NCBI GenBank assembly: GCA_016183535.1
Contig: JACPEK010000004.1
Location: 141,807 to 205,806 of the forward strand
Length of the DNA: 64,000 nt
From: Candidatus Brennerbacteria bacterium
Lineage (GTDB): Bacteria > Patescibacteriota > Minisyncoccia > UBA6257 > GWB1-50-10
Direction of reading: 5' to 3'
A model generated the notes under the pieces. That model saw nothing but the letters and a program-made list of their open reading frames with translations, was not told where the DNA came from and searched no databases. The stretch's first letter is position 1; each line of letters begins with the position of its first letter. The translations under genes were made by a program, and so were the position numbers. Of this stretch, positions 2,707 through 64,000 are shown in pieces.

Positions 2707-5406
2707 ATGTCCAACTTCCACCGATTTACCCTCAAAGCCCAGGACGCGCTTCAGGCCGCGCAAGAACTTGTCGCGGAGCTGAATCATGGGGAGCTCAAAG
2801 GCCTCCACCTTCTCTCGGCGCTCCTTGAGGACGAATCCACACTCGTGCGGCCGCTTCTCACGAAGGGTCAGGTGGATCTCCCGCTTCTCGAAGCGGAGCT
2901 CGAACGGGCGCTCGCCTCGCTTCCGAAAATCATCGCCGCGCGCGGCGCGGTGGGCCAGCTTTATCTCTCGACGGAACTCATGCGTATTTTGGATCGCGCG
3001 GCGGAAACGGCGAAGCGCCAAAAAGACGATTTTATTTCATGTGAACACCTCGTGCTCGCACTTCTCGACGTGCCGGGGACTGTTTCCGAACTTTTGACGC
3101 GCACAGGTGCGCGTCGCGAAATTTTATTCCGAACGCTTGCCGAACTGCGAGGTTCTGTGCGCGTGACCGACGAGATGCCGGAATCGAAGTTTCAAGTTTT
3201 GGACAAATATGCGGTGAATCTCACCGACAAAGCGAAGGAGGGAAAGCTTGATCCCGTGATCGGGCGCGAGAACGAACTCGAGCGCGTCATGCAAATTCTG
3301 TCGCGGCGCACGAAGAATAACCCGGTTTTGATTGGCGAGCCGGGCGTGGGGAAAACCGCGATTGTGGAAGGTTTGGCACAGATGATCGTGTCGGGGAACG
3401 TGCCAGAATCGCTTAAAGAGAAGGAAATTGTGATGCTCGATATCGGATCGCTCATCGCCGGCACGAAGTTCCGGGGCGAATTCGAGGATCGCCTCAAAGC
3501 GTTTTTAAAAGAACTCCAGAACGCGCAGGGGCGCATCATTCTCTTCATCGACGAGATTCATATGATCGTGGGGGCGGGCGCCGCGGAGGGCGCGGTGGAC
3601 GCCGCGAATCTTTTGAAACCCGCGCTCGCACGCGGCGAACTTCATGCGATCGGCGCGACGACCTTGAAGGAATACCAAAAGCACATCGAGAAGGACCCCG
3701 CGCTCGAGCGACGGTTCCAGCCGGTGATGGTGGAGGAACCTTCGACTGAAGATTCGATCGCCATTCTGCGGGGTCTCAAGGAGAAATATGAGACGCATCA
3801 CGGACTACGCATCACGGACGACGCCATCGTGGCGGCGGTGGAGCTTTCCGCGCGGTACATCACCGATCGCTTTCTCCCCGACAAAGCGGTGGATCTCGTG
3901 GACGAGGCCGCCGCGGCACGCCGGCTCGAATCTGACAGTGTTCCCTTGGAGCTCGCGAAGGTGCAGAAAGAGCTTACCCGTCGCGAGATCGAGTGGGCGG
4001 CGCTTGAGAAGGAACAACAGAAATCGCCGCGCATGAAAACGCTCGCGCGGGAAATCGCAAAACTCAAAGAGCGACACGAAACGCTCGCTGGCGAATGGCA
4101 CGCGGAGAAGCTTGTGTTCGAAAATCTCCACGCGGCGCGAAAAAAGATAGAGGATTTAAAACGCGAGGCGGAGAAGGCGGAGCGGGACGGCAATCTTGAG
4201 CGGGTGGCGCAGATACGCTACGGCGAGCTTCCGGAGGCGGAGAAACAGTATCGCACGTTTGAGAAACGCTACGACGCGGCCGCGGCCGCACCCATCCGAA
4301 AGGGCGCGCGCGCTTCATCGAAGCATTCGTCGGCCGGTCAGCTCGGCTCGAGGAAAGGGCCGGAACGGCGGTTCATCCGCGAGACAGTGGAGCAGTCGGA
4401 TATCGCCGCGGTCGTCGCGCGCTGGACCGGCATCCCTACCGCGAAAATGCTCGAATCGGAACTCAAAAAACTCTCCCGCATCGAGGAGGTGCTCGCGACG
4501 CGCGTGGTGGGTCAGAATGAGGCGGTCTCGGCCGTGGCCTGCGCTTTGCGGCGCTCGCGCGCAGGCCTCGCCGACGAAGATCGTCCCGCGGGTTCTTTTA
4601 TGTTTCTCGGTCCCACGGGGGTGGGGAAGACCGAACTCGCGCGCACCTTGGCGGAATTCATGTTTAACGACGAAAAAGCCCTGATTCGCATCGATATGTC
4701 GGAATATATGGAGCGGCACGCCATCGCGCGCCTCATCGGGAGCCCGCCGGGCTATGTGGGGCACGAGGAGGGCGGTCAGCTTACCGAACTGGTGCGCCAC
4801 CGCCCCTACTCCTTGATCCTTTTTGACGAGATCGAGAAGGCGCACCCCGAGGTGTTCAACATTCTTCTCCAGATGCTTGACAACGGACGCCTCACGGACG
4901 GCAAGGGGAAGCAGGTGAATTTCAAGAACGCCATCATCATCCTTACCTCGAACGTGGGGAGCGAGTATTTCCGCGAGATGTCGGGAGTCGGATTCACGAC
5001 GGCGAGTGAGGAAGAATTTCACAATAAAGAAGAACAGTTCCGCGACAAGGTCGAAGAAGCGCTGAAGGATACCTTCAAGCCGGAATTTTTGAACCGTTTG
5101 GACGAGGTAATTATTTTCAACGCTCTCACCCCGAAGGATGTGGGACACATCGTTGATATCCAACTTTCGAAACTCGCGACCCGAGTTCAAAAAAAAGGAC
5201 TCGCGCTTGTTGTGCATCCCGAAGTGCGACGTTACCTCGTCGCGCACGGGTTCGATCCCGACTACGGCGCCCGGCCGGTGAAGCGCCTCATCGAAAAAAC
5301 AATCGTGGACGCGCTTGCCGACAGCGTGGTGAAGGGCGTCGTGAGTCATGGTCACACCGTTATCGTTTCGCTTACCAAGTCGAACCGCGTGGCGATCAGC
5401 GCTTAG
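2707..5406 (+). CDS. clpB: ATP-dependent chaperone ClpB (two AAA+ modules, middle coiled-coil domain)
   Basis: 899 aa with a Clp N-domain. Two Walker A motifs are present ([15 protein letters not shown] and [15 protein letters not shown]). A long coiled-coil M-domain lies between the NBDs. The sensor-2 region reads [10 protein letters not shown]. Confidence 0.95.
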
Positions 5407-51997: not shown

Positions 51998-53497
51998 ATG
52001 CAAAAAAATTTTTTTCGCGTTTTTCACAGGTTTCTTGAACGTCTCTCATCCGCGCCTAAGGTGGGCGCCCTCCACCTGCAAAGCGGGGCGTTTTCCTACC
52101 TTCGTTTGGACGGCGCGACCGAAGCGTTTTCCGTAAAGGTGGAACCCGGGGCGCTCCGAGAGGGCAGGATCGCGGATCGCGGCAGGGTGCTCGCCGCGCT
52201 CGTGGAACTCCGCGCGCAGATCGGGGGGGGCGCGAAGAAGGGCGAAGAGGCGAAAATAGTCGCCATCATTCCTTCGGACCCCATCTATACCCAAAGCGTC
52301 AACATTCCAAACGTCGGGAAAGAACGTCTTGCGGAATCGGCGTCTTTGAATCTCCAGATGATTTCACCGATGGGCCGCGACGATGCCTATATGCGCTACG
52401 AACTTCTTGGGGAGGTTGACGATCATTACGAGCTCCTCGCCGCGTTTGCGGAGAAGCGCATCATTGATGAATTTCAAAGCGTGTTCAGGGAGGCGGGATT
52501 TACCCCCGTCATCTTCGAATTTTCGAGCCTTTCCCTTGCGAGGCTCATCGCGCGTGTGCGGGGTCTTCAAGACGACATCACGCTCGGGTGTTATGTTTCG
52601 TCGGACGGACTCGAGTTTTTCATTGTGAAACACGGGAAGCTCCACTTCAGCTATTTCCATTCGTGGGCATCGCTCCAAGGGGAGGCACGCGAGATTTCGC
52701 GCGAACTTTTCGAGGAGGTGGTAACCCGCGAGGTGCAGAAGGTGGTGAATTTCTCGCTTGGCAAATTCAAAGAGCGCCCTCGCGAGATGGTACTTGTCAC
52801 GCAGGGTCTCGAAGCGGAGATTAAGGCGCTCATCGCAAACCGATTCGGATTTTCCGCCACCACCCTTGAAACGGGGGGAGGGTTTACCCCGCCATGGTAT
52901 GTGGCGCTTGGCGCCGCGCTTCGCGCGAAAGAGGGTCTCGAGGGGGATGAGGGTATCAACCTTGCGCCGCTGTCATCACGCGACCGAATGTTCCAGGAAC
53001 AGACGATCGGTTTCGTGAGGCTCTGGAGGAACGTGATCGTGGGCGCGCTCGCGCTCTTTGTGGTGTTTTTTTCTGGCGCGGCGTATTCCCTGAATCGGAT
53101 GGACCGCTCAACCGAGGCGCGTCTTGTCGAATTCACCGCCCACTTCAACGCCGGCGAGCTTACGACACTTGCCGCGCGCGCGGACGAATTCAATACGCTC
53201 GTCCGATCCGTGGCCAGTGCCGCGGGCGACCGCGCGCCGTGGGATCGCCTGTTGCGGACGCTCGAGCGCACCATGAAAGAACACAGCGTAACACTTGACC
53301 GCATCGAGATAGCGGGGAGGGGGAGTGGCGCGACGCTTGCCGCGCGCGCGCCGTCGAATGAGCGTCTCCTCTCGTTTAAGAACGCACTCGCGTCCGCCGA
53401 GGGATTTGCGGCCGTGAATCTGTCGGTGGCGCGGATCGCGACTTTGGAGGATGGTTCGGTTGGATTCGCGCTCACCTTCACCCCGACCGTTCCGTGA
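51998..53497 (+). CDS. PilM-like actin-fold pilus assembly protein fused to a TM + periplasmic (PilN-like) C-terminal region
   Basis: A PilM-like pattern runs through ...AEKRIIDEFQSVFREAGFTPVIFEFSSLSLARL. A TM helix at about residue 350 reads VIVGALALFVVFF, followed by about 140 aa. Confidence 0.5.
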   Translation: MQKNFFRVFHRFLERLSSAPKVGALHLQSGAFSYLRLDGATEAFSVKVEPGALREGRIADRGRVLAALVELRAQIGGGAKKGEEAKIVAIIPSDPIYTQSVNIPNVGKERLAESASLNLQMISPMGRDDAYMRYELLGEVDDHYELLAAFAEKRIIDEFQSVFREAGFTPVIFEFSSLSLARLIARVRGLQDDITLGCYVSSDGLEFFIVKHGKLHFSYFHSWASLQGEAREISRELFEEVVTREVQKVVNFSLGKFKERPREMVLVTQGLEAEIKALIANRFGFSATTLETGGGFTPPWYVALGAALRAKEGLEGDEGINLAPLSSRDRMFQEQTIGFVRLWRNVIVGALALFVVFFSGAAYSLNRMDRSTEARLVEFTAHFNAGELTTLAARADEFNTLVRSVASAAGDRAPWDRLLRTLERTMKEHSVTLDRIEIAGRGSGATLAARAPSNERLLSFKNALASAEGFAAVNLSVARIATLEDGSVGFALTFTPTVP

Positions 53498-53501
53498 CGC
53501 G

Positions 53502-54116
53502 TTAATTTTTTGAGGTATTGAGGTAACGTTGTTGGAACTCTTCTGCGGCCGAGCGTATTGCCGTTTCGGCGGCGCGCGTCATCGGACGGAGCACAAACCT
53601 TCCTGCCGGAAGGCAAGGCGCGTCTACCTTTTCTCTTTCCATTTGCGGGGGTCGGATGCCGATGCGGAGACGCCAGAATTCTTTGGTCCCGAAGGCGCGA
53701 ATCACCGACTCCACGCCATGGTGGCCCGCGCTCCCGCGTCCGTATTGAAGACGAAACGCGCCGAGGGGAAGATCCGCATCGTCGTGGATGACGAGGCACG
53801 CTTGCGGTTTTGCGCGGAAGGCGCGCCGCGCCGCCGCCGCGCCCCTCCCCGATTCGTTCATGAACGTTTGAGGGATCACAAATGTCCGCGCGGGGGTGCG
53901 ATGGGAGAGAAAATTTTCGCGCGCGTGGAATTTGGATTCCGGTATCCCCGCGAACGCGCGCGCGACGAGGCGCCCCGCGTTGTGGTAGGTGCGGGCATAG
54001 GCGGCACCCGGGTTGCCGAGCCCGATCACGAGTTTTATCGTTTCCGCCCTAAACTCACGTGGCGAGTCGGCCGAACCGCCTGCGGTTTTAAGCTTGAATT
54101 CCGCTCCCATGATCAT
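53502..54116 (-). CDS. pth: Peptidyl-tRNA hydrolase
   Basis: Contains LVIGLGNPGAAYARTYHNAGRLV and the canonical H-N-A-G. Confidence 0.85.
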   Translation of the reverse strand: MIMGAEFKLKTAGGSADSPREFRAETIKLVIGLGNPGAAYARTYHNAGRLVARAFAGIPESKFHARENFLSHRTPARTFVIPQTFMNESGRGAAAARRAFRAKPQACLVIHDDADLPLGAFRLQYGRGSAGHHGVESVIRAFGTKEFWRLRIGIRPPQMEREKVDAPCLPAGRFVLRPMTRAAETAIRSAAEEFQQRYLNTSKN

Positions 54117-54140
54117 TAGAATTATCGCATATTTCTTTTC

Positions 54141-54680
54141 ATGAAAAAGGTTTTACACGCTCTTCTCGAAGTGTTTCAGACGGTGGTGCTTGCGGTAGTG
54201 GCGGTGCTTTTCGTCCGGGCGTTCGTCGCCCAGCCGTTTCTCGTCTACGGTGCCTCCATGGAGCCGACGTTCTCGGACGGGGATTACCTTCTCGTGGACG
54301 AACTCACGCCCCGTTTTCGGGAGCTCGCGCGCGGCGAGGTGGTGGTATTCCGTTATCCCGGCGACGAGCGTTCGTTCTATATCAAGCGGGTGATCGGGTT
54401 GCCCGGAGAACATATCACGATTGAGAACGACCTGGTGACGGTGACGAAGGGTGGAATTTCCACCGTGCTTGCGGAGCCTTATGTGGCGCGGAACCTCGCG
54501 ATGGGGAACGTTGACGTCGCGCTCCGCGACGGAGAGTACTATGTGCTCGGGGACAATCGCGGTTTCAGCTTCGACTCGCGGAGCTGGGGGCCGCTCGCGG
54601 ACGATCACGTGGTCGGACTCGTGCGGATGCGTCTGTGGCCATTCTCTTCGGCGCTCGCGTTTTCGGCGCCAACCTATTAA
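54141..54680 (+). CDS. lepB: Signal peptidase I
   Basis: Box B reads GASMEPTF (Ser nucleophile). Box D reads YIKRVIGLPGE (Lys). Box E reads VLGDNRGFSFDSRSWG. Confidence 0.85.
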   Translation: MKKVLHALLEVFQTVVLAVVAVLFVRAFVAQPFLVYGASMEPTFSDGDYLLVDELTPRFRELARGEVVVFRYPGDERSFYIKRVIGLPGEHITIENDLVTVTKGGISTVLAEPYVARNLAMGNVDVALRDGEYYVLGDNRGFSFDSRSWGPLADDHVVGLVRMRLWPFSSALAFSAPTY

Positions 54681-54685
54681 TTAAT

Positions 54686-56011
54686 ATGTCGACCACAAAG
54701 AAAACGGATCCTAAGAAACAAGAGAAAAAAGCGGAGGGCTCGCAGGCGCTTCAGGCGGTAAAAGGCATGCCGGATATCCTCCCCAAGGAAGAGGGTTGGT
54801 GGAAATCCTTTCGCGCCGCCGGCGCCACCGTTGCCGAACTTCATGATTTTCATCGCATCGAGACGCCGATTCTCGAGCCGGCGGAACTTTTTGAGCGGGG
54901 AGTGGGCGCCGCGACCGACATCGTGGAGAAACAGATGTACGCTTTCCGCACCAAGGGCGGCGAGCGGGTGGCGCTCCGTCCAGAGGGAACCGCCGCGGTG
55001 ATGCGGGCGTATTTTGAACACCACCTCGGGTACTTCGCCTCCCCCCTCAAGGCGTTTTACGAGGGACCGATGTTTCGCTACGAGCGACCGCAAGCCGGTC
55101 GCGACCGCCAGTTTCATCAATGGGGATTTGAAATCGTGGGAGATGGCGATTCCGTGTACGACGTCGAAGTGATGCTCGCCACCCTCGCAATATTCCGCGA
55201 GCTTAAATTCCCCGCCTTCACGGTAAAGATCAATTCCATGGGATGTAAGGTGTGTCGCGCGTCCTACCGCGAGAAACTCAAAAATTATTACCGCGCCCGC
55301 GAAAAGAAACTCTGTAAAGATTGCGCGCGGCGCCTCGATAAGAATCCATTCCGACTTCTCGATTGCGAGGAAGAGGATTGCAAAGCGCTTCGTGGCGAGG
55401 CGCCCATCATCCTCGATTATCTCTGCCAGACTTGCAACGCGCACTTCAAATCAGTGCTCGAGCTCGTGGAAGAGAACGGCATTCCCTACGAGCCTGATCC
55501 GTTCCTCGTGCGTGGTCTGGATTACTACAATCGCACTGTTTTTGAAGTGTGGGGGGTCGGCGCGCCGCACGCGCTCGCGGGCGGCGGCCGCTACGATTAC
55601 CTGGGCGAGCTCATCGCCGGTCGGGCGGTACCCGCGGTGGGCGCCGCGATCGGTATGGAACGTTCCATCGCGTTTCTGAAGTCCGCTACGCCGCCCGTGG
55701 CGCTCTCGAAAGAGCGCCCCCGCGTATTTTTCACCGCGGTAGGCGATCAGGCGAAACGGGCGAGCCTGAAGCGTATGGAAGAGTTGCGCCGCGCCGGCGT
55801 GCCGGTGGTGGAAGCTTTGGGGAAGCGATCATTAAAAGGTCAGCTCAAAGTGGCAGGGAAGCTCAAAGTTCCGCTCGCTTTGATCTTCGGACAGAAAGAG
55901 ATGTTTGAGGGTTCGATCATTATGCGCGACATGGTAACCGGCGCCCAAGAAACGGTGCTTCTTGATCGCTTGGTGGAGGCGGTGAAGCAGGATCTGAAGA
56001 AAAAATCATAA
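54686..56011 (+). CDS. hisS: Histidyl-tRNA synthetase (class II)
   Basis: Contains GMPDILP, FRYERPQAGRDRQFHQWG (motif 2) and GGGRYD (motif 3). Confidence 0.9.
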   Translation: MSTTKKTDPKKQEKKAEGSQALQAVKGMPDILPKEEGWWKSFRAAGATVAELHDFHRIETPILEPAELFERGVGAATDIVEKQMYAFRTKGGERVALRPEGTAAVMRAYFEHHLGYFASPLKAFYEGPMFRYERPQAGRDRQFHQWGFEIVGDGDSVYDVEVMLATLAIFRELKFPAFTVKINSMGCKVCRASYREKLKNYYRAREKKLCKDCARRLDKNPFRLLDCEEEDCKALRGEAPIILDYLCQTCNAHFKSVLELVEENGIPYEPDPFLVRGLDYYNRTVFEVWGVGAPHALAGGGRYDYLGELIAGRAVPAVGAAIGMERSIAFLKSATPPVALSKERPRVFFTAVGDQAKRASLKRMEELRRAGVPVVEALGKRSLKGQLKVAGKLKVPLALIFGQKEMFEGSIIMRDMVTGAQETVLLDRLVEAVKQDLKKKS

Positions 56012-56015
56012 TATT

Positions 56016-56396
56016 ATGGAAAACCCGCAAGAGAATTGCGTATTCTGCCGGATTCTAAAAAAAGAAATTTCCGCGGATTTTGCGTATGAAGACGACGCGG
56101 TGGCGGTGTTCGCCGATATCAAGCCGTCCGCGCCGGTGCACTATCTCGTCGTGCCGAAGCGGCACGTGGATTCGGTAATGGCACTTGATGATACTGACGG
56201 CGTGCTCGCGGGCGCGCTTATCCTCGCCGCGAAGAAAGTGGCCGCCGCGAAAGGACTCAAAGGATACCGGCTTGTATTCAACGTTGGCCGCGAGGGTGGT
56301 CAGGTGGTGGATCACCTCCATCTCCACCTCATTGGAGGATGGACGAAGCCGGAGGAAGGCACGGTGTTTGAAGCGGAGATCCTTCGCGCGCCGTGA
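56016..56396 (+). CDS. HIT-family (histidine triad) nucleotide hydrolase
   Basis: Contains HLHLHLIGG (the HxHxHxx motif). Confidence 0.85.
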   Translation: MENPQENCVFCRILKKEISADFAYEDDAVAVFADIKPSAPVHYLVVPKRHVDSVMALDDTDGVLAGALILAAKKVAAAKGLKGYRLVFNVGREGGQVVDHLHLHLIGGWTKPEEGTVFEAEILRAP

Positions 56397-56448
56397 GTCG
56401 AAAAAGATTGACTAATTGTTGACTACCCGTTACTAATTATTACTACCC

Positions 56449-56676
56449 ATGCCAATAAAAGTAAAAAAGCGTGAAGGTGAGAGCGTGAACACGCTCCTCT
56501 ATCGCTTCAATAAGCGGGTTCAGCAGAGCGGTCTCGTGCGCGAGGTGCGCAAGCGCCAGTTTCGGAAGCGGGTCGAGAACCGGCGGAAGCGTAAAGACGC
56601 CGCCCTCTACCGGAAGAACAAGCAGGAAGCCACGGCGCGCGACCGAAAGTTGGGGCTTGTGTCCCGCGAGCGATAA
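56449..56676 (+). CDS. rpsU: 30S ribosomal protein S21
   Basis: Translation begins MPIKVKKREGESVNTLLYRFNKRVQQSGLVREVRKRQF..., colinear with the bacterial S21 pattern MPxIxVREnE...ALRRFKR...G...E.RRR. Confidence 0.75.
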   Translation: MPIKVKKREGESVNTLLYRFNKRVQQSGLVREVRKRQFRKRVENRRKRKDAALYRKNKQEATARDRKLGLVSRER

Positions 56677-56678
56677 CC

Positions 56679-57158
56679 ATGGCGAACCTTCACGAACGGA
56701 TCGCCGCTGACGCCGCCTCCGCCGCGAAAGCGGGCGATGATGTGCGACGCGACGCGCTTCGTTTCCTTCTCGCCTCGCTCCACAATCGTAAAATAGAGAA
56801 AAAAGGAAAAGGAGACGCCGCCGCGCTTACCGATGACGATGTACGTGCGGTAATCGAGCGCGAGGCGAAAAAACGAAAAGAAGCGATCGAGTTTTTTGAA
56901 AAAGGAGGTCGTCCCGCGCAGGCGGTGAAGGAGCGCGCCGAGCTCGGAGTGCTTGAGGAATATCTTCCCGCCGCGCTTCCCGATGCGGAAATTGCGCGTT
57001 TGATAGAAGAGGCGATCCGCGTGTCGGGCGCCTCGGACGTGAAAGAGATGGGTAAGGCGATGGCCGCGTTCCGCGAGCTTTTAGGAAAAACAGCGCCGGG
57101 ATTCCGCGCAGATGCGGGCGCGGTAAGCGCGAAGATTAAAGTTCGCCTGTCCGCGTAG
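56679..57158 (+). CDS. GatB/YqeY-domain protein
   Basis: YqeY-like layout: N-terminal helix bundle, LTDDDVRAVIEREAKKRKEAIEFFEKGGR, LEEYLP. Confidence 0.8.
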   Translation: MANLHERIAADAASAAKAGDDVRRDALRFLLASLHNRKIEKKGKGDAAALTDDDVRAVIEREAKKRKEAIEFFEKGGRPAQAVKERAELGVLEEYLPAALPDAEIARLIEEAIRVSGASDVKEMGKAMAAFRELLGKTAPGFRADAGAVSAKIKVRLSA

Positions 57159-57178
57159 GCACGTCCATTATTGGAGCG

Positions 57179-57631
57179 ATGGTAAAACCTCCCCGCGCGT
57201 CCATTGTTTTCCATGCGTCGGAACCTCGTTTCGCTTGCTTCGCGGCTTCGGTGCGCCGTGTATTGCGCACTTCGCTTTTACGCCTCTCAAAACACCCCGC
57301 CGCCCTCGGCGTTTTTTTGGTTTCCGACGCCGAGATGAGACGCATTAACCGCCGCGCGAAGGGGAAAGATCGCCCGACGAACGTCTTGTCTTTTGTGGAG
57401 CCGCCGCAGATGCCCCACCCGGAACTCCCGCGCGCGGTGCGCGCGCGGGGGGAAATATTTCTCGCGCCAGATTTCATCGCGCGCCGTAACGAGGACATTA
57501 AACTGCTCGCGGTGCACGGACTTCTCCACCTTTTCGGGTATACGCACGGAAGCGCGCGTGATAGGATGAGGATGGAACGCAAGGAACGTCAACTTCTCAT
57601 CCCTCATGTCGTACGTGGTAACCGGTATTGA
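57179..57631 (+). CDS. ybeY: rRNA maturation endoribonuclease YbeY
   Basis: Zn-binding motif reads HGLLHLFGYTH (HxxxHxxxxxH). Confidence 0.85.
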   Translation: MVKPPRASIVFHASEPRFACFAASVRRVLRTSLLRLSKHPAALGVFLVSDAEMRRINRRAKGKDRPTNVLSFVEPPQMPHPELPRAVRARGEIFLAPDFIARRNEDIKLLAVHGLLHLFGYTHGSARDRMRMERKERQLLIPHVVRGNRY

Positions 57632-58823
57632 TATTGGTTCGAGCGCGGTGCGCGGCGCGGTCGCGGAGATCGGACAGGACGGAAAACTGGCCGTGCGGCA
57701 CACGTTCGCGCGCCCTTCGGCGGGATTCCGCCGCGGCGTGCTTGTGGACGCGGAGGAAGCGACACACGTGCTTCGCGACGCCGCGCTCATTTTGAAAAAC
57801 ATTTCGCGGCGCGCCATGCAGAACGTATTTGTGAACGTCGCGAGTGAACACGTCCGCGCCCGTCCCTCGCGGGGTATTGTGGCGGTCGCGCGCGCGGATC
57901 AGGAGATTCAAGAGGAAGACATCGGGCGTGTTATCGAGGCGTCCCGCGCGGTGAAACTTCCGCCGAATGCGACGGTGCTTCATCACATCGTACGCGAATA
58001 TTTTGTGGACGATGTGGGTGATATCGCGAATCCTCTCGGTATGAACGGGAGCCGTCTTGAGGTGTCCGCGTTGGTGGTGGAGGCGTTTGGGCCTCACGTG
58101 AACGTGCTCGTGAAGGCGCTCGAGCGGGTAGGACTCAAAGTGGGCGGCCTTATCGTGAATCCTCTTGCGGCGGCGCAGAGCACGCTCTCGAAACGCCAGA
58201 AGGAACTCGGGTGTTTGCTCGTTGATTTCGGTTTCGGCACGACCTCGCTTGTGATGTATGAAGAGGGCAAGGTGGCGCACGTAAAGGTTATTCCCGTGGG
58301 AGCGGGCCACGTGACGAACGATATCGCGGTAGGCCTCCGAACGTCGGTGGACGTCGCGGAGCGCCTCAAACTTGAGTTCGGCGCCGCGTCGGCGCGCGAT
58401 GTGAATCGGAAGGAAACGGTGCCCCTCAAAGAATTCGATCCTTCGGCGGATGCCGAAGTAACGCGGAGATTTCTCGCGGAAATCATCGAGGTACGGATCG
58501 AGGAGATTGTGGGGCTCATTAAAGCCGAGATAAAGGCGGTAGGGCGCGATCTTGAATTTCCCGGCGGCGCGGTGCTTGTGGGCGGCGGCGCGCGCCTCGC
58601 GGGTCTCCCCGCGCTCGTGAAGGAAGAGCTCAAAATTCCCGTCCAAGTCGGGGTCCCGTATCTCAACGAGTTTTCAATAGAGCGGACGGAGCATCGCGAT
58701 CTCCTTGAAGACCCGCGCGCGGCGACTCTCACGGGCCTCATGCTCTGGGGCGCGACCGAACAGCCCACCTCCCCGCTTTCGGGAAATCCAGTGAAGAAGT
58801 TGCTTAAGTACTTCATTCCATAG
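57606..58823 (+). CDS. ftsA: Cell division protein FtsA (actin fold)
   Basis: Contains VTGIDIGSSAVRGAV (phosphate 1), LVDFGFGTTSL and VLVGGGARLAGL. Confidence 0.85.
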   Translation: MSYVVTGIDIGSSAVRGAVAEIGQDGKLAVRHTFARPSAGFRRGVLVDAEEATHVLRDAALILKNISRRAMQNVFVNVASEHVRARPSRGIVAVARADQEIQEEDIGRVIEASRAVKLPPNATVLHHIVREYFVDDVGDIANPLGMNGSRLEVSALVVEAFGPHVNVLVKALERVGLKVGGLIVNPLAAAQSTLSKRQKELGCLLVDFGFGTTSLVMYEEGKVAHVKVIPVGAGHVTNDIAVGLRTSVDVAERLKLEFGAASARDVNRKETVPLKEFDPSADAEVTRRFLAEIIEVRIEEIVGLIKAEIKAVGRDLEFPGGAVLVGGGARLAGLPALVKEELKIPVQVGVPYLNEFSIERTEHRDLLEDPRAATLTGLMLWGATEQPTSPLSGNPVKKLLKYFIP

Positions 58824-58864
58824 TAGGCTGAACTGGATATTAGATAACGATTTCTCTCGTCGTC

Positions 58865-60103
58865 ATGAAAAAAAGAAGCGTGAAAAAGCGAGAACCAAAA
58901 AGAAAAAAAACGCTTGCGTCTCGCGTGAAACAGGGGAAGGGAACCTTCACGCGCATCAAAGTGGTGGGCGTGGGGGGCGGCGGTGGGAACGCGGTGAGCC
59001 GCATGATGGCGGAGAGCGACCGCATTCGTGGTGTGGAATTTATCGCCGTGAATACCGACGCGCAGGATTTGGACCACGCGAACGCGCATAAAAAAATTTA
59101 TATCGGCCGCGCGCTCACCCACGGTTTGGGCGCCGGCATGAACCCGGAGATCGGAAAGCAGGCGGCGGAGGAAAACCGTTCGGAGATCGGCGAGGCGTTG
59201 GACGCGGCGGACGTGGTATTCCTCACGGCAGGCTTCGGAGGCGGCACGGGCACCGGCGCTCTGCCGGTGATTGCCGAGGTCGCGCGTGAGAAGGGGATTC
59301 TCACGCTTGCGGTCGTTACGCGCCCCTTCTCCTTCGAGGGGAGTCAGCGAATGACGATTGCGCAGGAGGGGCTCGTGCGGCTCAAAGACAAGGTGGACGC
59401 GCTGGTGGTCATTCCGAACGACCGCATTTTCAGCATCATCGACAAGGACACGTCGGTCACACGGGCGTTCACCCACATTGACGATGTGTTAAAGAGCGCC
59501 GTGAAGGCCATCGCGGACCTCGTGAACGTGCCCGGTATCATCAATATTGATTTTGCGGACATTAAGACGACTTTGAAAGACGCTGGCACAACCCTCATCG
59601 GTATTGGCGTGGCGTCGGGTCCCGAGCGGGGTGTGAAGGCGGTGGAAGCCGCGGCAAATTCCCCGCTCCTCGAGACGGCGATGGAGGGAGCGAAAGGACT
59701 TCTCTTTAGTATCGCCGGCGGGCGAGATCTCAAAATGGCGGAGGTGTACGACATTGCAAAGGCGATCGCGGGAACCCTCGACGCCGGCGCGCGGGTCATC
59801 TTCGGTGCCTATTACGACCGCGGTCTCTCGGAGAAGAGTATTAAAGTGACGGTGATCGCGACGGGCTTCAACGGCGGCTGGTCGGAAGGAAACCGTCTCC
59901 CGCTCCATTCGCTCTTCGCGAAAGACGCGGGAGGTTCGCCGGGTTCCATGAAAGTGAAGAAGGAAATCCTCGTTCCGGCACAGAACAAAAAAGAAGAGGA
60001 ACTAAGAGAAGAGGAAGGAGACGCGATTTCTTCGGCGAAGCCGCTTTCGAAGGAAGAAGCGTGGGAAATCCCGGCGTTTCTCCGGAAAAAGAAACGAAGA
60101 TAA
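58865..60103 (+). CDS. ftsZ: Cell division GTPase FtsZ
   Basis: Contains VVGVGGGGGNAV and the tubulin signature GGGTGTGALPV. T7 loop region reads NVPGIINIDFADI. Confidence 0.95.
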   Translation: MKKRSVKKREPKRKKTLASRVKQGKGTFTRIKVVGVGGGGGNAVSRMMAESDRIRGVEFIAVNTDAQDLDHANAHKKIYIGRALTHGLGAGMNPEIGKQAAEENRSEIGEALDAADVVFLTAGFGGGTGTGALPVIAEVAREKGILTLAVVTRPFSFEGSQRMTIAQEGLVRLKDKVDALVVIPNDRIFSIIDKDTSVTRAFTHIDDVLKSAVKAIADLVNVPGIINIDFADIKTTLKDAGTTLIGIGVASGPERGVKAVEAAANSPLLETAMEGAKGLLFSIAGGRDLKMAEVYDIAKAIAGTLDAGARVIFGAYYDRGLSEKSIKVTVIATGFNGGWSEGNRLPLHSLFAKDAGGSPGSMKVKKEILVPAQNKKEEELREEEGDAISSAKPLSKEEAWEIPAFLRKKKRR

Positions 60104-60106
60104 TAA

Positions 60107-60133
60107 AAACCGCCCGAGGGCGGTTTTTCTTTT
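60107..60133 (+). terminator. Rho-independent terminator after ftsZ (abuts the 3' end of the convergent tRNA-Lys)
   Basis: aaaccgccc-gag-ggcggttt followed by ttcttttac. Confidence 0.5.
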
Positions 60134-60142
60134 ACTGTCATC

Positions 60143-60218
60143 TGGTGCCTCCTGCAGGGATCGAACCTGCGACCGTCTCCTTAAAAGGGAGCTGCTCTAC
60201 CAACTGAGCTAAGGAGGC
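60143..60218 (-). tRNA. tRNA-Lys (anticodon UUU), CCA encoded
   Basis: Reverse complement is GCCTCCTTAGCTCAGTTGGTAGAGCAGCTCCCTTTTAAGGAGACGGTCGCAGGTTCGATCCCTGCAGGAGGCACCA. Fully paired 7-bp acceptor stem. D-loop AGTTGGTA. Anticodon loop CTTTTAA. T-loop TTCGATC. Confidence 0.85.
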
Positions 60219-60283
60219 AAAACGTTTTTTGTATAGTACCCCGTGATTTCGATTTCGGCAACGATTCGGGTAGGATAGAGCGA

Positions 60284-60672
60284 ATGCCGCTTTCGAACCC
60301 GTTCACGCGCGAAGAGGAAGTCGTTCATACGTTCACATTCTCGGCCGTATCGTTCCGCGACGTGAAGGCGATCTATATTATATGACCGCCGCGGTCGCGG
60401 CCGTGGTGTGCCAAACACTGGAGAGCGGCAAAGCTTTCATGAACGCCTCATCAACCGCCATCGTCCGGCCATGGCTCCAGGATTTCGATATTGGCGCGAC
60501 GTATGATGTGCCGATGGTACGTGCGGAAATCCAGGCGGTGAAAGATGTGGGAGCGGAGGACACGTGGATGATCTGGAACCCCGCGAACGTGTACGAGTGG
60601 AACGAATTCCTCCCGGCGATCAAACGTGCTAGGGTGGGGTGCCGACGCCGCGCTTCACCGCGCTTATGGTGA
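60284..60672 (+). pseudogene. Possible frameshifted or truncated gene remnant (two adjacent short ORFs, 60284-60385 and 60382-60672; the latter resembles the C-terminus of a putative glycoside-hydrolase-like family)
   Basis: The 35-aa ORF MPLSNPFTREEEVVHTFTFSAVSFRDVKAIYII overlaps the next ORF by ATGA in a different frame. That next ORF ends in ...VRPWLQDFDIGATYDVPMVRAEIQ...WMIWNPANVYEWNEF. No N-terminal catalytic part is present. Confidence 0.25.
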
Positions 60673-60904
60673 CGCTCGTGACGTCGATGAGACGCCCAAT
60701 CTTCTGGTAGCTCATGCCGCGTTCGAGGAGCACGGTGATCGCGAGGCGTTTTTCAAGCGCGATGATCTCGGCGGGGGTTAAGACCCTGCGGAGCGCAGTG
60801 AGAAGCGCGTCCTCCGAGTGCGCGTTTCCTACAAGGTGGGAGAAGCGTTTCCATGCTTCTTTCTTTAGGTCTCCTTTGATGCGGTTTTTATTCACGCGGA
60901 CCAT
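60629..60904 (-). CDS. TrpR-related YerC/YecD-family DNA-binding protein
   Basis: Contains LLTALRRVLTPAEIIALEKRLAITVLLERGMSYQKIGRLIDVTSVTISAVKRG, matching the Trp-repressor-like HTH pattern. Confidence 0.7.
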   Translation of the reverse strand: MVRVNKNRIKGDLKKEAWKRFSHLVGNAHSEDALLTALRRVLTPAEIIALEKRLAITVLLERGMSYQKIGRLIDVTSVTISAVKRGVGTPP

Positions 60905-60954
60905 ATCGTTGCTCTAGTATATCATATTATAGTAGGCAGAGGATGAAGGGCGGG

Positions 60955-60974
60955 CCTGCCTGCCGGCAGGCAGG
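60955..60974. promoter_or_regulatory. Perfect 20-bp GC-rich palindrome CCTGCCTGCCGGCAGGCAGG between divergent yerC-like and HNH genes (operator candidate)
   Basis: Read directly. The reverse complement of the first half equals the second half. It is flanked by TATAAT-like boxes for both divergent genes. Confidence 0.4.
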
Positions 60975-61018
60975 TTGAAAAGGGGAGATACCTTAACACA
61001 TTGTGCTATAATGATTGT

Positions 61019-61381
61019 ATGCTGAAGCATTGCAGGCGGCATGGCGATGTAAACCACTTCAAGCGGCTTGACGGGTCCCTTCGCTGTGGAAAATGTGCTT
61101 CAGAATGGGTTGTAGCGAGCAGGATTCGAAAGAAAGAACGGTTAGTAAAGCAGTGCGGCGGTAAATGTAGAATCTGCGGATATGGAAAATATGTAGGCGC
61201 ACTCGATTTTCATCATAAAGATCCCTCGAAGAAGTCTTTTGCGTTAAGTGTTCGTGGCCTCTGCTACTCCTGGGATGCCATCGAGCGAGAGGCAAAGAAA
61301 TGCGTACTTCTTTGCAAGAATTGCCATGCAGAGGTTGAAAACGGTATAACGGTGTTGCACAATAAGCGCATTCCCCGGTAG
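61019..61381 (+). CDS. HNH endonuclease-family protein with Cys-rich zinc-binding motifs
   Basis: Contains CGKCASEW, CGGKCRICGY, DFHHKDP and LLCKNCHAEVENG (HNH: H-H...N...CxxCH). An extended -10 TGCTATAAT at 61004-61012 lies directly upstream. The 3' end overlaps the start of tRNA-Asn. Confidence 0.6.
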   Translation: MLKHCRRHGDVNHFKRLDGSLRCGKCASEWVVASRIRKKERLVKQCGGKCRICGYGKYVGALDFHHKDPSKKSFALSVRGLCYSWDAIEREAKKCVLLCKNCHAEVENGITVLHNKRIPR

Positions 61382-61446
61382 CACAGTGGTAGTGCAACTC
61401 CCTGTTAAGGAGTGGGTCGTAGGTTCGAATCCTACCCGGGGAGCCA
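61372..61446 (+). tRNA. tRNA-Asn (anticodon GUU), CCA encoded
   Basis: Sequence is TCCCCGGTAGCACAGTGGTAGTGCAACTCCCTGTTAAGGAGTGGGTCGTAGGTTCGAATCCTACCCGGGGAGCCA. Paired 7-bp acceptor stem. Anticodon loop CTGTTAA. T-loop TTCGAAT. Confidence 0.85.
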
Positions 61447-63060
61447 AGATGTACTTTTTACTAAATTTTCCCCAATAACCCCTGGGGCTATTGGGTTTTC
61501 GGAGGTTCGAGCAGAAACAGTTACAGCTCCAACTTTAGAAGTATTCCCAAAGAGAGTTTGGAACACGGGACGCAGTTGTATCTTCAATTTTCCGCCTTCA
61601 ACGAGGAGGTTCGAGCCGAGGCAAGCAAGAATGGCTCGTTTTACATCCAGGTCTCCCTTCTCAAACCAGGCACGCGCGTATCGCGCAAAATTGAATGTGC
61701 GTTCGCTTAGTTCAACCCACTGCTCTAATTCACTGCCCTGGCTCCGAAGAGCGCTCTCAAGCGATTCTTTGCGCTTTAGGAGGGTACTCTTAAGGGAGTC
61801 GTATTCGGCATCGGAAATGAGTTTCCCGTCTTTGTTTTGGACTGAAGTGTACTTGAGTAGCAACGAGCCAAGTTGTTCCGATACTTCTTCTAAATCTTTC
61901 TGCTTATTCTGGAAAGCAATGTGCTGGGTGGTAGCTTCATTCGTTCTAATTTCGTGGAGATACTTTATAGCCCAATTCTTGAACTCCTCCGAAACCGTAA
62001 TACCCTCCAACGCCCCATCTATTTGGCGGTGTAATTCCTTTACCTCAACGGATTTTTCAAGACAGTTTGGGTTCTTTTTCTTCGTGCAGTGATAGTAGAT
62101 ATAGTGGTGCACATTCCCATTTTTCTGATGTTTGAACTTTTCTTCTGCTGTAACAGCAGACCCGCAAACAGCGCACCTCATCAAGCCAGTGAAGGCGAAT
62201 AGGTGGGATTTTGGGGCTGGCTTTCCTTTCCTTCCTAAAATCACTTGCACCCGTTGATATTCTTCTTCGGTAATCATAGGTTTATGTCCTCCCTTAATCC
62301 AGTTACCACTACCTACGGGGAACTCAAAATAGCCATAATAAAATGGACTGGTAAAGAGTTTATAAATTGCACTGCGAGACATAGGTTTTCCACCCTCGTT
62401 TCTTCTTTGAACGGTTCGATAGCCCCACTCTGTATTTGCTATTTTCCAAATGCGGGGAGCAGTGTAGTTTCCAGTTAACATCAAGTCCCACATCCTACGC
62501 ACTAAAGGAAAGCGCTCTGGGTCTTCCACAATTGTTTTATAACCCTTGTTTCTATCTGGCGTGTTTAAGTACCCAGCTGGCGCAACGCTTGGTAGCCACC
62601 CTGCTTTAGCTTTATTTCTCAAACCACGCTTAACATTTGTAGAAAGGTCTCGAACAAATTGATTTGCCATTCCAAATTCAACACTCATCATCAAAACATT
62701 GTCTGTCGGATAATAACTTCGCTCAAAGGTTTGAATGTGCTGTATCACGCCTTGTTGGAGCATCCAGTTAATAGTTCCGCCATCTACAGGATTACGAGCA
62801 AGTCGGTCTAATTTCCAACAGATAATTCCCTGCGCTTCACCTTTGTATATGCGCTGAATCATATCGTTGAAAATAGGTCTCCCAGGAGCTTTTGCGGATT
62901 GTGCTTCAGAGAGAATATCCAACACTTCCAAGTTTGCACCCCGCGCGAGTTTAGTTAATTCTTCAATTTGTGCCTCAATAGAAGCAACCTGTCTATCCTC
63001 CGCCTCACTGGATTTACGAGGATAGACGAAATATTTAATTTTTTGTTGTGCGTTTTTCAC
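61432..63060 (-). CDS. Large serine recombinase (resolvase/invertase N-domain + recombinase domain + zinc ribbon)
   Basis: N-terminus reads YFVYPRKSSEAEDRQVASIEAQ (catalytic Ser context Y-x-R-x-S-S), followed by ICWKLDRLARN. C-terminal Zn ribbon reads CAVCGSAVTAEEKFKH...YYHC. The 3' end overlaps tRNA-Asn by about 15 nt. Confidence 0.85.
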   Translation of the reverse strand: MKNAQQKIKYFVYPRKSSEAEDRQVASIEAQIEELTKLARGANLEVLDILSEAQSAKAPGRPIFNDMIQRIYKGEAQGIICWKLDRLARNPVDGGTINWMLQQGVIQHIQTFERSYYPTDNVLMMSVEFGMANQFVRDLSTNVKRGLRNKAKAGWLPSVAPAGYLNTPDRNKGYKTIVEDPERFPLVRRMWDLMLTGNYTAPRIWKIANTEWGYRTVQRRNEGGKPMSRSAIYKLFTSPFYYGYFEFPVGSGNWIKGGHKPMITEEEYQRVQVILGRKGKPAPKSHLFAFTGLMRCAVCGSAVTAEEKFKHQKNGNVHHYIYYHCTKKKNPNCLEKSVEVKELHRQIDGALEGITVSEEFKNWAIKYLHEIRTNEATTQHIAFQNKQKDLEEVSEQLGSLLLKYTSVQNKDGKLISDAEYDSLKSTLLKRKESLESALRSQGSELEQWVELSERTFNFARYARAWFEKGDLDVKRAILACLGSNLLVEGGKLKIQLRPVFQTLFGNTSKVGAVTVSARTSENPIAPGVIGENLVKSTSWLPG

Positions 63061-63396
63061 TTATTTCTTGTGCTCAACGGTAGAGCCGTACTTTTTGGCT
63101 AATTCCTCTTTTGCTTGTTCCAGAAGTAGTAATTTTTCATTTGCGTATGAGCGAGCCTCCTCCTTTTCTTCCATTGAACCATAAGCGAGATTGTGCATCT
63201 CGTAACGCAACAAAGTTATTTCCTCCTCCTTTTCTTCTATAGAGTTAAACATTAATGCTAGTCCGAGAAGTATAAAGAAAGCTGTCCATCCGAAGTTTTC
63301 TCCGACCAACACAGTATCCACTCTCAAAAACCATATAAGCGCCAACACCGCTATGGCTATAAATACCTTCTTAATTGTTTTTGGCTTGTAATTCAT
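63061..63396 (-). CDS. Hypothetical small membrane protein (2 TM helices + charged coiled-coil tail) within the putative element
   Basis: Translation is MNYKPKTIKKVFIAIAVLALIWFL...WTAFFILLGLALMF followed by an EEKEEE-rich tail. Start chosen at internal Met (63396). The ORF could extend to 63444. Confidence 0.4.
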   Translation of the reverse strand: MNYKPKTIKKVFIAIAVLALIWFLRVDTVLVGENFGWTAFFILLGLALMFNSIEEKEEEITLLRYEMHNLAYGSMEEKEEARSYANEKLLLLEQAKEELAKKYGSTVEHKK

Positions 63397-63433
63397 AAGT
63401 GCTTGGAAAATCAAAAAGGGACTACCCGCCGAC

Positions 63434-63548
63434 TTGCGTCCCACATTTCAGAACACCGTGAGGTGTCCTTAGTGGAAGTCGGGAGTAGCCCCTTCCTGCC
63501 CGCTAAGGACACAAAAACCTCACGAATATACTGAAATATGGGACGCAA
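63434..63548. repeat. Long imperfect inverted repeat (about 40-bp arms, about 30-bp spacer) between two minus-strand genes
   Basis: Arm 1 is ttgcgtcccacatttcagaacaccgtgaggtgtccttag. The reverse complement of arm 2 is ttgcgtcccatatttcagtatattcgtgaggtttttgtgtccttag. About 32 positions pair, arranged in blocks. Confidence 0.6.
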
Positions 63549-63561
63549 ATTAATAATAGCA

Positions 63562-63936
63562 CTATTCTGGTTGATTTTGAAGTAAGATTTTTTTGATAAT
63601 TCCATACAAATAAGCTGGCGGATTATCTATTCTTTTCCCGCCTTGTCTGTCCTCGCGGTATCTGCCCCAAGCGTTATCTATGATTCGTATTCCGTGCTTT
63701 CGTAGTACATTAAGAAGTGGGTTTATGTATTCTTCCCCGACTTCCGTTGCTATTTCTTTGCAACGCGACTCTTCCGTTGATTGAGGCTCAAAATCTGCTA
63801 CGAGCGTTCTCTTAAAAGTTTTTTTACTTAGCGTAAATTCAATATCTTTGTAAGTGTTCGTGTCGTTATAGAGACCTCTGGGTTGGTCTTTTGCTGAATC
63901 AGGGGAAAAGCGTTTTATTAATTCGCTTTTTGCCAC
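63562..63936 (-). CDS. Hypothetical protein (may extend beyond the listed start toward the window end)
   Basis: 124-aa ORF in the AT-rich element region. No motif recognised. Confidence 0.3.
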   Translation of the reverse strand: MAKSELIKRFSPDSAKDQPRGLYNDTNTYKDIEFTLSKKTFKRTLVADFEPQSTEESRCKEIATEVGEEYINPLLNVLRKHGIRIIDNAWGRYREDRQGGKRIDNPPAYLYGIIKKILLQNQPE

Positions 63937-64000
63937 TTCAAATCTCTGATTCGCAACACCAAAGGTCTGTGGAACTTCTGACTCGGTTTCTACCTCACCT

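Follow-up and report, generated by a model that had tools for sequence, protein, structure and literature searches.

A probable mobile island at the 3' end of a tRNA-Asn gene of Candidatus Brennerbacteria, and a serine recombinase gene predicted to be split by its integration

The locus and the boundaries of the island

The window, i.e., the whole 64,000-nt stretch analyzed here, belongs to a chromosome of Candidatus Brennerbacteria (Patescibacteria). At its right end, a gene for a large serine recombinase (LSR) runs into the 3' end of a tRNA-Asn gene from the opposite strand and is accompanied by low-GC DNA, which has been interpreted here as the left part of a small island. All positions of the acceptor and T stems of this tRNA-Asn are paired. 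The following features carry the argument; "composite" coordinates are those of the window plus its extension by a contig designated L001, up to 68554.

61372-61446, plus strand: tRNA-Asn(GTT), intact, with CCA encoded (ARAGORN and Rfam, 72 bits)
61422-61429, plus strand: T-loop motif GGTTCGAA, B arm of attB, 10 nt upstream of the core
61432-63060, minus strand: LSR gene in its truncated form, 542 aa, GTG start (open reading frame, ORF, and Pfam)
61440-61447: left copy of the common core GGAGCCAA, tRNA positions 70-76 plus 1 (repeat search)
61448-61575, minus strand: P' arm of attP and coding region of the C-terminal tail of LSR, about residues 496-538 (stop-free frame)
61448-64000: visible part of the low-GC island of 7,085 bp (GC content, L001, repeat and P arm)
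composite 68503-68524, plus strand: P arm of the island (signature GGTTCTAA-N15-GGAGCCAA)
composite 68525-68532, plus strand: right copy of the common core GGAGCCAA, directly after the P-arm signature (repeat search)

The GC content is 0.51-0.64 at 52000-60800 and 0.39-0.44 at 61800-64000, and stays at 0.33-0.50 over the 4.5 kb of the L001 extension past the window. The low values of the island (0.33-0.50, against about 0.60 in the host) support a foreign origin. A sharp GC drop downstream of the tRNA had been pointed out in the initial annotation; the fall from about 0.60 to about 0.42 is real, but its onset lies about 450 nt ahead of tRNA-Asn, where 0.47-0.49 is already found across an ORF for an HNH endonuclease (61001-61381) that lies outside the island.

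Pfam matches of the 542-aa protein to Resolvase (8.7e-18), Recombinase (6e-07) and Zn_ribbon_recom (2.7e-08) have confirmed the three domains originally read from its translation, and PHROG 95 (integrase) is matched at 1.4e-64. Similarity to PDB chains of the A118 integrase, of SPbeta YokA (annotated as a resolvase homologue/site-specific recombinase) and of the TP901-1 integrase is low but detectable (E about 1e-8), the alignment to the A118 integrase extending to its C-terminal domain; among NCBIfam families, CcrA, CcrB and CcrC are distantly similar, far under their cut-offs. The catalytic residues Y13, R15, S17, D85, R86 and R89, conserved in at least 95% of 67 homologues, and the zinc-ribbon residues C296, C299, C325 and C333, conserved in 67/67, are all present, as is every other residue conserved in at least 95% of these homologues. 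Residues from about 345 to 460 appear helical and charged by eye. Judged from its catalytic, recombinase and four-cysteine zinc ribbon domains, the protein is classified as a large serine recombinase. Its TAG stop, the complement of 61432-61434, lies 13-15 nt inside the tRNA 3' end, in agreement with what had been noticed before. The end of the gene, TGG CTC CCC GGG TAG (W L P G *), is the complement of 61446-61432 and overlaps the final 15 nt of the tRNA, the final two codons and the stop coming from the antisense strand of the host tRNA.

An exact look-up of the LSR protein has led to L001, a Logan contig of sample SRR12113420, which spans 61418-68554: over 2,583 nt (61418-64000) its sequence is exactly that of the window, and 4,554 nt more follow beyond the end of the window. 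On the plus strand, GGAGCCAA has a single further copy in the next 7.1 kb, at composite 68525-68532, so that the island, bounded by this 8-nt direct repeat, measures 7,085 bp. The far end is therefore 4.5 kb past the window, and the proposal of an integrated element at tRNA-Asn, with a tRNA-proximal integrase and its other end outside the window, has been borne out. The direct repeat of 15-40 nt of the tRNA 3' end that had been suggested as a check was not found: repeats of at least 11 nt of the tRNA and its flanks are absent from the window and the L001 extension, and the actual repeat is the 8-nt GGAGCCAA. With a repeat of this length, no more than the final 7 nt of the tRNA can be element-derived, and the supposed reconstitution of its 3' end by the element is thus minimal. 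An exact 40-mer from the far end of L001 was absent from the JGI metagenomes.

The far end is also recognized by a P-arm signature learned from relatives, which on the tRNA-sense strand consists of GTTCTAA, 15 nt and GGAGCC. A search of the composite sequence for the signature gave a single match, GGTTCTAATGTCAGCTACAATGTGGAGCCAA at 68503-68532. Matches to GTTCTAA-N14-16-GGAGCC occur in only 8/169 fetched loci (numbered with the prefix L), and those inspected include the far end of the present island, the distal boundary of the island in L167/L168/L169, junctions that follow LSR (L119, L168) and stacked upstream sites of the P-arm type (L150). When attL of the window was aligned with eight P arms, the distance to the core was 10 nt for GGTTCGAA in the tRNA and 15 nt for GGTTCTAA in the P arms, the common motif being GGTTC(T/G)AA. 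In large serine integrases, the attP half-site is about 5 bp longer than the attB half-site, and the 5-nt outward shift of the P-arm motif would fit this difference. The 3' part of tRNA-Asn is the left half of the attachment site, comprising the B arm of attB and the core. The crossover dinucleotide should lie within the 8-nt core, and a symmetry between GTTCG (-17) and CGAAC (+20) around it, seen at this single site, hints at a crossover near A72-G73.

Both ends of L001 are informative in themselves, one lying 22 nt before the left core copy and the other 22 nt after the right one. Logan contigs are derived from a k=31 de Bruijn graph. Since L001 ends at k-1 from both cores, we infer, indirectly, an insertion polymorphism in SRR12113420, where an empty-site allele consisting of tRNA, core and downstream flank should accompany the occupied one. 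In the predicted empty site, tRNA-Asn is directly followed by AGAAGACAATACGAAC, with the junction ...TCCTACCCGGGGAGCCAAAGAAGACAATACGAAC; joining the island ends in silico gives the predicted attP junction ...GGTTCTAATGTCAGCTACAATGTGGAGCCAAGATGTACTTTTT.

Taken together, the locus very probably holds a 7,085-bp mobile island that has been integrated by its own LSR at the extreme 3' end of tRNA-Asn. In the proposed mechanism, LSR dimers would bind attP and attB, the latter consisting of the T arm and acceptor 3' strand of the tRNA, the core and about 20 nt downstream; strands would be exchanged at a 2-bp stagger within the core, and the tRNA would be left intact after integration. Several points weigh against this interpretation. 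The sequence ends at composite 68554 with no return to host composition seen, and the 22 nt past the right core resemble P' arms of related islands, so that an older element, instead of the native tRNA flank, may adjoin the right core. An 8-nt repeat alone is weak evidence, and the case needs the P-arm signature and the contig ends, the latter argument depending on how Logan contigs are constructed. In L002, L072 and L107, the corresponding repeats are 19-21 nt long and start in the T loop; core length, and even crossover position, may therefore differ between subclades. Neither a circular form nor an empty site was directly observed.

The recombinase reading frame across the attachment site

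When the island ends are joined in silico, the LSR ORF is lengthened to 570 aa and ends in ...STSWL-HIVADIRTYWQSGGEHFFIPRLSEQTALTS, whereas the integrated form of 542 aa ends in ...STSWL-PG. The same joining of L167 gives 563 aa ending in ...TWL-RVVDEVRTYYQNNPEYFFIPRLSVDVAVIN. The LSRs of L167 (535 aa) and L168 (563 aa) are 72.5% identical to that of the window, and the predicted excised-form tails of the window and L167 are homologous. The predicted 570-aa form ends in the conserved peptide ...VADIRTY...EHFFIPRLS..., and the pattern WL.(I/V)VD(D/N)VRT...E(Y/H)(I/F)(Y/F)IP(D/R)L has been found in at least six diverged elements. In six elements, the peptide is encoded with many synonymous codon differences, and a stop is reached a few codons later; a regular expression for the peptide has 13 distinct matches on the LSR strand, compared with none on the other. 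The approximately 126 nt between LSR residue 495 and the tRNA are stop-free in the LSR frame in 80/82 non-redundant loci, while the other two frames are so in 11/82 and 5/82, and this excess shows that the LSR ORF truly extends to the tRNA.

By these comparisons, the attachment site falls within the LSR ORF, some 30 codons short of where the ORF really ends. The C-terminal tail appears to be a translated and selected peptide that integration would detach and leave 7 kb away, exchanging the conserved 28-30 residues for Pro-Gly-stop from the tRNA antisense strand. The statement that the integrase abuts the tRNA needs to be modified accordingly: the overlap is real, but instead of mere abutment there is an ORF that runs into the tRNA and is predicted to contain the attachment site. 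A truncated ORF that runs on to a chance stop also explains the variable overlap between LSR and tRNA, which ranges from 10 nt up to read-through.

As a tentative proposal, which we consider possible but not probable, the tail peptide may be a built-in state switch: the full 570-aa enzyme would be made only from the circle, the tail-less enzyme of the integrated state would differ in activity, stability or directionality, and the clade would recognize generic features of the tRNA T arm and 3' end. A related proposal, to which we give a similarly minor chance, is that the island has become immobilized, integration having removed a needed part of the integrase, as with the archaeal "suicidal" integrases, so that the copy in the window is unable to excise alone. 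The integrated LSR does lack the conserved 28-30-aa peptide, and the tandem stacks and orphan P arms of L020, L150 and L168 suggest accumulation without excision; on the other hand, all recognized LSR domains are intact up to about residue 540, and the occupied/empty polymorphism deduced for one sample would mean recent movement in at least one direction. Immobilization concerns excision alone and is compatible with an island integrated by its own LSR.

The tail-coding region holds a further feature.

61471-61499, plus strand: hairpin followed by a T-run, CCAATAACCCCTGGGGCTATTGGGTTTTC, directly 3' of the tRNA and antisense within the LSR tail

This hairpin may serve tRNA-Asn as a replacement terminator, and comparable hairpins with T-runs have been seen by eye in many relatives; its fold energy was no better than that of shuffled sequences (z = 0.22).

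Related islands: targets, junctions, neighbors and cargo

For the comparative analysis, 160 LSR relatives have been collected, 80 from GTDB genomes and 80 from JGI metagenomes, and 137 of their loci had enough downstream sequence to be informative. The relatives are mainly from Patescibacteria. At least 94 of the 137 loci have an ARAGORN tRNA on the opposite strand that is abutted, entered or read through by the LSR ORF, and about 17 further loci have a T arm or an intron-bearing tRNA-Asn at the LSR end. The LSR clade of the window, mostly found in Patescibacteria, is thus almost always convergent to a tRNA gene and reads into it. The LSR-adjacent tRNAs cover thirteen amino-acid specificities, and in a neighbor-joining tree the identity of the target tRNA tracks the LSR clades, with occasional switches. 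LSR genes with 91-94% DNA identity lie at different tRNAs in L035 and L038 (Asn vs Gln(TTG)) and in L051 and L061 (Arg(TCG) vs Val(TAC)); the P arms of L035 and L038 are identical, and their two tRNAs share GGTTCGAATCC...GAGCCA. This suggests recognition of generic tRNA 3' features, and recognition of the T arm and 3' end in general would explain how such similar enzymes come to lie at different tRNAs.

A T-loop-like motif, GGAGGTTCGAGC, has been found in two copies only in the 64-kb window, both within the LSR gene.

61501-61512, plus strand: copy 1, in the coding region of the LSR tail, read as SARTS
61605-61616, plus strand: copy 2, in the LSR coding region, read as LGSNL

T-loop-like motifs occur at equivalent positions in about 62/77 related LSR tails, with the consensus GGYTCGAACC, a near-palindrome resembling the tRNA T arm, and the T-loop-like 7-mer is 16-fold enriched in LSR tails (6.3 per kb) relative to LSR bodies (0.4 per kb). 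In one copy, which is read as the conserved LGSNL, the TCG-AAC codons are invariant, while the frame of the other copy varies between clades; this variation in frame points to a probable role at the DNA level.

Junctions of relatives provide information on the position of the crossover. L167, a 601 kb NCBI contig, and L168 share 11.17 kb at 99.98% identity and split inside the LSR ORF after antisense ...TTGGCTCCG, between tRNA positions 69 and 68. Six elements that are 89-94% identical have the same break point, after which differing tRNA-Asn variants, or non-tRNA sequence (L119), follow. The P-arm signature is common to such non-tRNA flanks. Element identity ends at tRNA positions 68/69 to 71/72 in the near-identical L167/L168 and in L109, L115, L117 and L119, and likewise in the distant pairs L035/L038 and L051/L061; these end points place the crossover in the last 8 nt of the tRNA for the clade of the window. 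Three loci have longer exact repeats.

L002, 4357-4375/11616-11634: exact repeat from the T loop (position 56/57)
L072, 4656-4674/11491-11509: exact repeat from the T loop (position 56/57)
L107, 24-44/7997-8017: exact repeat from the T loop (position 56/57)

These repeats extend over tRNA positions 56/57 to 75/76, and the islands that they delimit measure 6.8-8.0 kb. They do not fit the model of an 8-nt core, and these elements have either a P arm that is a perfect mimic of the tRNA or a crossover at another position. A crossover in the T loop (position 57/58), which had been considered from the 5' limit of these repeats, has been dropped for the clade of the window. A mismatch test for hybrid tRNAs was negative, stems being intact in 49/50 LSR-adjacent tRNAs, the same as in controls; no fetched contig was circular by terminal overlap; and dyad symmetry in the reconstructed attP of L072, L107 and L002 was unconvincing by eye.

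Islands of the family have been found in tandem at one tRNA-Asn in L020 (11600-17400), L168 (11612-13653) and L150 (2477-4906). In L020 and L168, the P-arm signature is that of a second island, which separates the first one from the tRNA; the two islands of L020 each have their own LSR, and the second LSR ends in an intron-bearing tRNA-Asn. L150 has three P-arm-plus-core sites upstream of a single LSR. Where two islands meet, the junction is a hybrid that joins the P arm of one to the P' arm of the next. L079 has, at 4290-4360, 50 nt of another tRNA-Val(TAC) next to LSR. This fragment extends from the anticodon arm through CCA, lies about 110 nt downstream of the complete tRNA-Val of the host, and may be a captured or relic junction.

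The boundary of the island at the tRNA could also be explained in two other ways. In the first, which is very improbable, the locus would be an assembly chimera, in which a high-GC host and a low-GC segment of another organism were joined via the tRNA-Asn 3' sequence. The GC jump of 18 points is in line with this, and so is the fact that the independent k=31 assembly breaks inside tRNA-Asn, as well as in the neighboring tRNA-Lys. However, the same architecture is present in more than 100 independent assemblies, and the distal gene of the island is on the same 210,920-nt NCBI contig. The L001 end positions also argue against a chimeric join, because breaks at exactly k-1 from both 8-nt cores fit an insertion polymorphism and not a random repeat.

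The second explanation, for which we see hardly any chance, is a larger element that carries its own tRNA-Asn and has its left boundary near 60.9 kb, with the HNH ORF included. It would account for the GC content of 0.47-0.49 already at 60.8-61.4 kb and for the matches of the HNH ORF to phage HNH families. However, the island contig begins inside the tRNA and not upstream of it, an end position that argues against a boundary there; comparison of junctions in relatives locates the boundary within the final 8-20 nt of the tRNA; and the tRNA and its flanks are not repeated elsewhere in the sequence searched. In other hosts, HNH homologues lie inside group I introns of tRNA-Asn, which indicates a separate selfish gene.

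The HNH ORF and two other features lie to the left of the island.

60382-60672, plus strand: 96-aa ORF, matching only the last 68 of the 313 positions of a DUF4015 glycosyl-hydrolase profile
60945-60980: GC-rich inverted repeat gggcctgcctgccggcaggcaggt, in the spacer between a TrpR-like gene and the HNH ORF
61001-61381, plus strand: HNH endonuclease ORF (PHROG HNH families, up to 1.8e-21; GC 0.47-0.49)

The HNH ORF overlaps the first 10 nt of the intron-less tRNA-Asn, and homologues with 44-47% identity are neighbors of the LSR-adjacent tRNA at five other loci. The homologue of L135 lies within an Rfam-confirmed group I intron at position 35/36 of tRNA-Asn, and L108, L134 and L136 have the same layout. 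The intron-bearing tRNA-Asn genes, which were missed by ARAGORN, have the group I intron at position 35/36 that has been described in PMC13011429. The HNH gene of the window, free-standing beside an uninterrupted tRNA-Asn, may have a homing-endonuclease relationship to it. The 96-aa ORF looks like a gene remnant that starts just beyond tRNA-Lys (60143-60218) and suggests an older rearrangement there.

The other genes of the island are as follows.

63061-63444, minus strand: 127-aa protein (ORF; a gene of 118-127 aa occupies the same position in relatives)
63562-64000 and on to composite 64362, minus strand: conserved island protein of 266 aa, with its C-terminal part in the window (ORF)
composite 64001-68532: remaining island genes for proteins of 55, 61, 699 and 322 aa (ORFs of L001)

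The small unknown proteins first noticed downstream of the recombinase are the 127-aa protein and the C-terminal part of the 266-aa protein, and this description is upheld: no significant match to either was found in Pfam, PHROG, NCBIfam or PADLOC. NCBI lists proteins identical to two of those encoded in the L001 extension from a metagenome-assembled genome of Candidatus Brennerbacteria, on the 210,920-nt contig. By eye, the N-terminal half of the 127-aa protein is hydrophobic, and its C-terminal half is charged and looks helical. An AlphaFold2 (AF2) model of the 266-aa protein (mean pLDDT 75) has an N-terminal winged-helix-like domain and a helical domain, and its best Foldseek matches are regulators of the PadR/MarR/BlaI type (E 2e-3 or worse); the model gives a weak indication of a winged-helix DNA binder. 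A module of the 55-aa, 266-aa and approximately 120-aa genes with LSR recurs with different cargo in relatives, and the 55-aa gene, found upstream of LSR in at least 45 loci, is a candidate excision/directionality factor.

The cargo of relatives includes a 1,548-aa NACHT protein in L167, oxidoreductases with DUF3800 in L072 and, in the second island of L020, a 538-aa protein with reverse-transcriptase and serine-protease motifs recognized by eye. The closest homologue of the 322-aa cargo protein outside this metagenome-assembled genome of Candidatus Brennerbacteria (81% identity) is in L085/L086 (3099-10969), where it is directly preceded by a type I restriction-modification operon together with genes for a 149-aa protein and for a Schlafen/AlbA_2 protein, and this is a defence-island context for the uncharacterized 322-aa family. 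The 699-aa and 322-aa cargo genes are probably defence-related.

The initial annotation had left the kind of element open between a prophage, an integrative and conjugative element (ICE) and an integrative island. A temperate phage or ICE is exceedingly unlikely: the LSR does match phage integrase families, but the whole element measures only 7.1 kb, its six other genes have no meaningful match in Pfam, PHROGs, NCBIfam or PADLOC, its bounded relatives of 6.8-8.5 kb carry oxidoreductases or a NACHT protein, and no LSR relative was found in IMG/VR. Only the integrase of the whole element matches PHROGs, with no genes for virion structure or packaging, and no relaxase or type IV secretion match was obtained with Pfam and NCBIfam, by which a distant relaxase could escape detection. 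The family consists of small cargo islands, and probably of defence islands, not of prophages or ICEs, and of the three kinds first considered only the integrative island remains.

Significance and comparison with known systems

The clade uses tRNA genes as a rule and over 13 specificities, while a 2020 survey, according to which no t(m)RNA gene use by a serine integrase was on record and which found only 14/297 computational cases, treated serine integrases as not known to be tRNA-targeting (PMC7192596). In the literature searched on tRNA-targeting serine integrases and patescibacterial islands, we found no description of this LSR clade, nor of the variant in which such an integrase is split by integration. 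The clade also has its attachment site within the integrase gene, so that the C-terminus of LSR depends on whether the element is free or integrated, and if the tail controls activity, this would be a new way to set the directionality of serine integrases, which are common genome-engineering tools. Near-identical enzymes at different tRNAs are natural material for a study of target-specificity change. The islands, which stack at tRNA genes, seem to be small vehicles for defence-type genes, and through them genes would be able to enter the very small genomes of Patescibacteria.

The integrases of A118, SPbeta (SprA) and TP901-1 have the same domain architecture as LSR, and their attP arm is longer than the attB arm, as the motif spacing would suggest for the present island; they are directed to protein-coding or intergenic sites, and their genes are not known to span attP. 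SCCmec elements are small cargo islands at the 3' end of a conserved gene, with short direct repeats and tandem stacking. Their CcrAB/CcrC recombinases target rlmH in Staphylococcus hosts and the ccr genes are not known to span att, whereas the island here targets a tRNA. In the integration-dependent immunity of mycobacteriophage BPs, attP lies in an ORF and integration at a tRNA alters the C-terminus of a phage protein; in that system, it is the repressor gene that is affected, and a tyrosine recombinase carries out the integration, in contrast to the present island, where the integrase itself, a serine recombinase, is affected.

Integrases of the SSV1 type also target tRNA genes, and to our knowledge an attachment site within the integrase gene is known only from archaeal tyrosine integrases. 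Tyrosine-recombinase islands found by Islander/TIGER have, according to PMC4383910 and PMC7192596, an integrase by the tRNA 3' end, a foreign composition and a preserved gene function; their displaced tRNA fragment is tens of nucleotides long, while only 8 nt are duplicated here, and the enzyme family differs. According to PMC7253208, the "suicidal" tyrosine integrases of the SSV type in archaea have the recombination site within the integrase ORF, as in LSR, and the gene is broken by integration. In these archaeal systems, the broken gene is that of a tyrosine recombinase and is left in two inactive parts, whereas the island has a bacterial LSR that loses only the last 28-30 residues. These integrases are the nearest precedent, the likeness being functional since LSR is not a member of their family, and the proposed state switch, if true, would be their bacterial serine-recombinase counterpart. 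The element described here is an integrative island of a known general kind with a variant mechanism, in which the gene for a tRNA-targeting serine integrase is split by integration.

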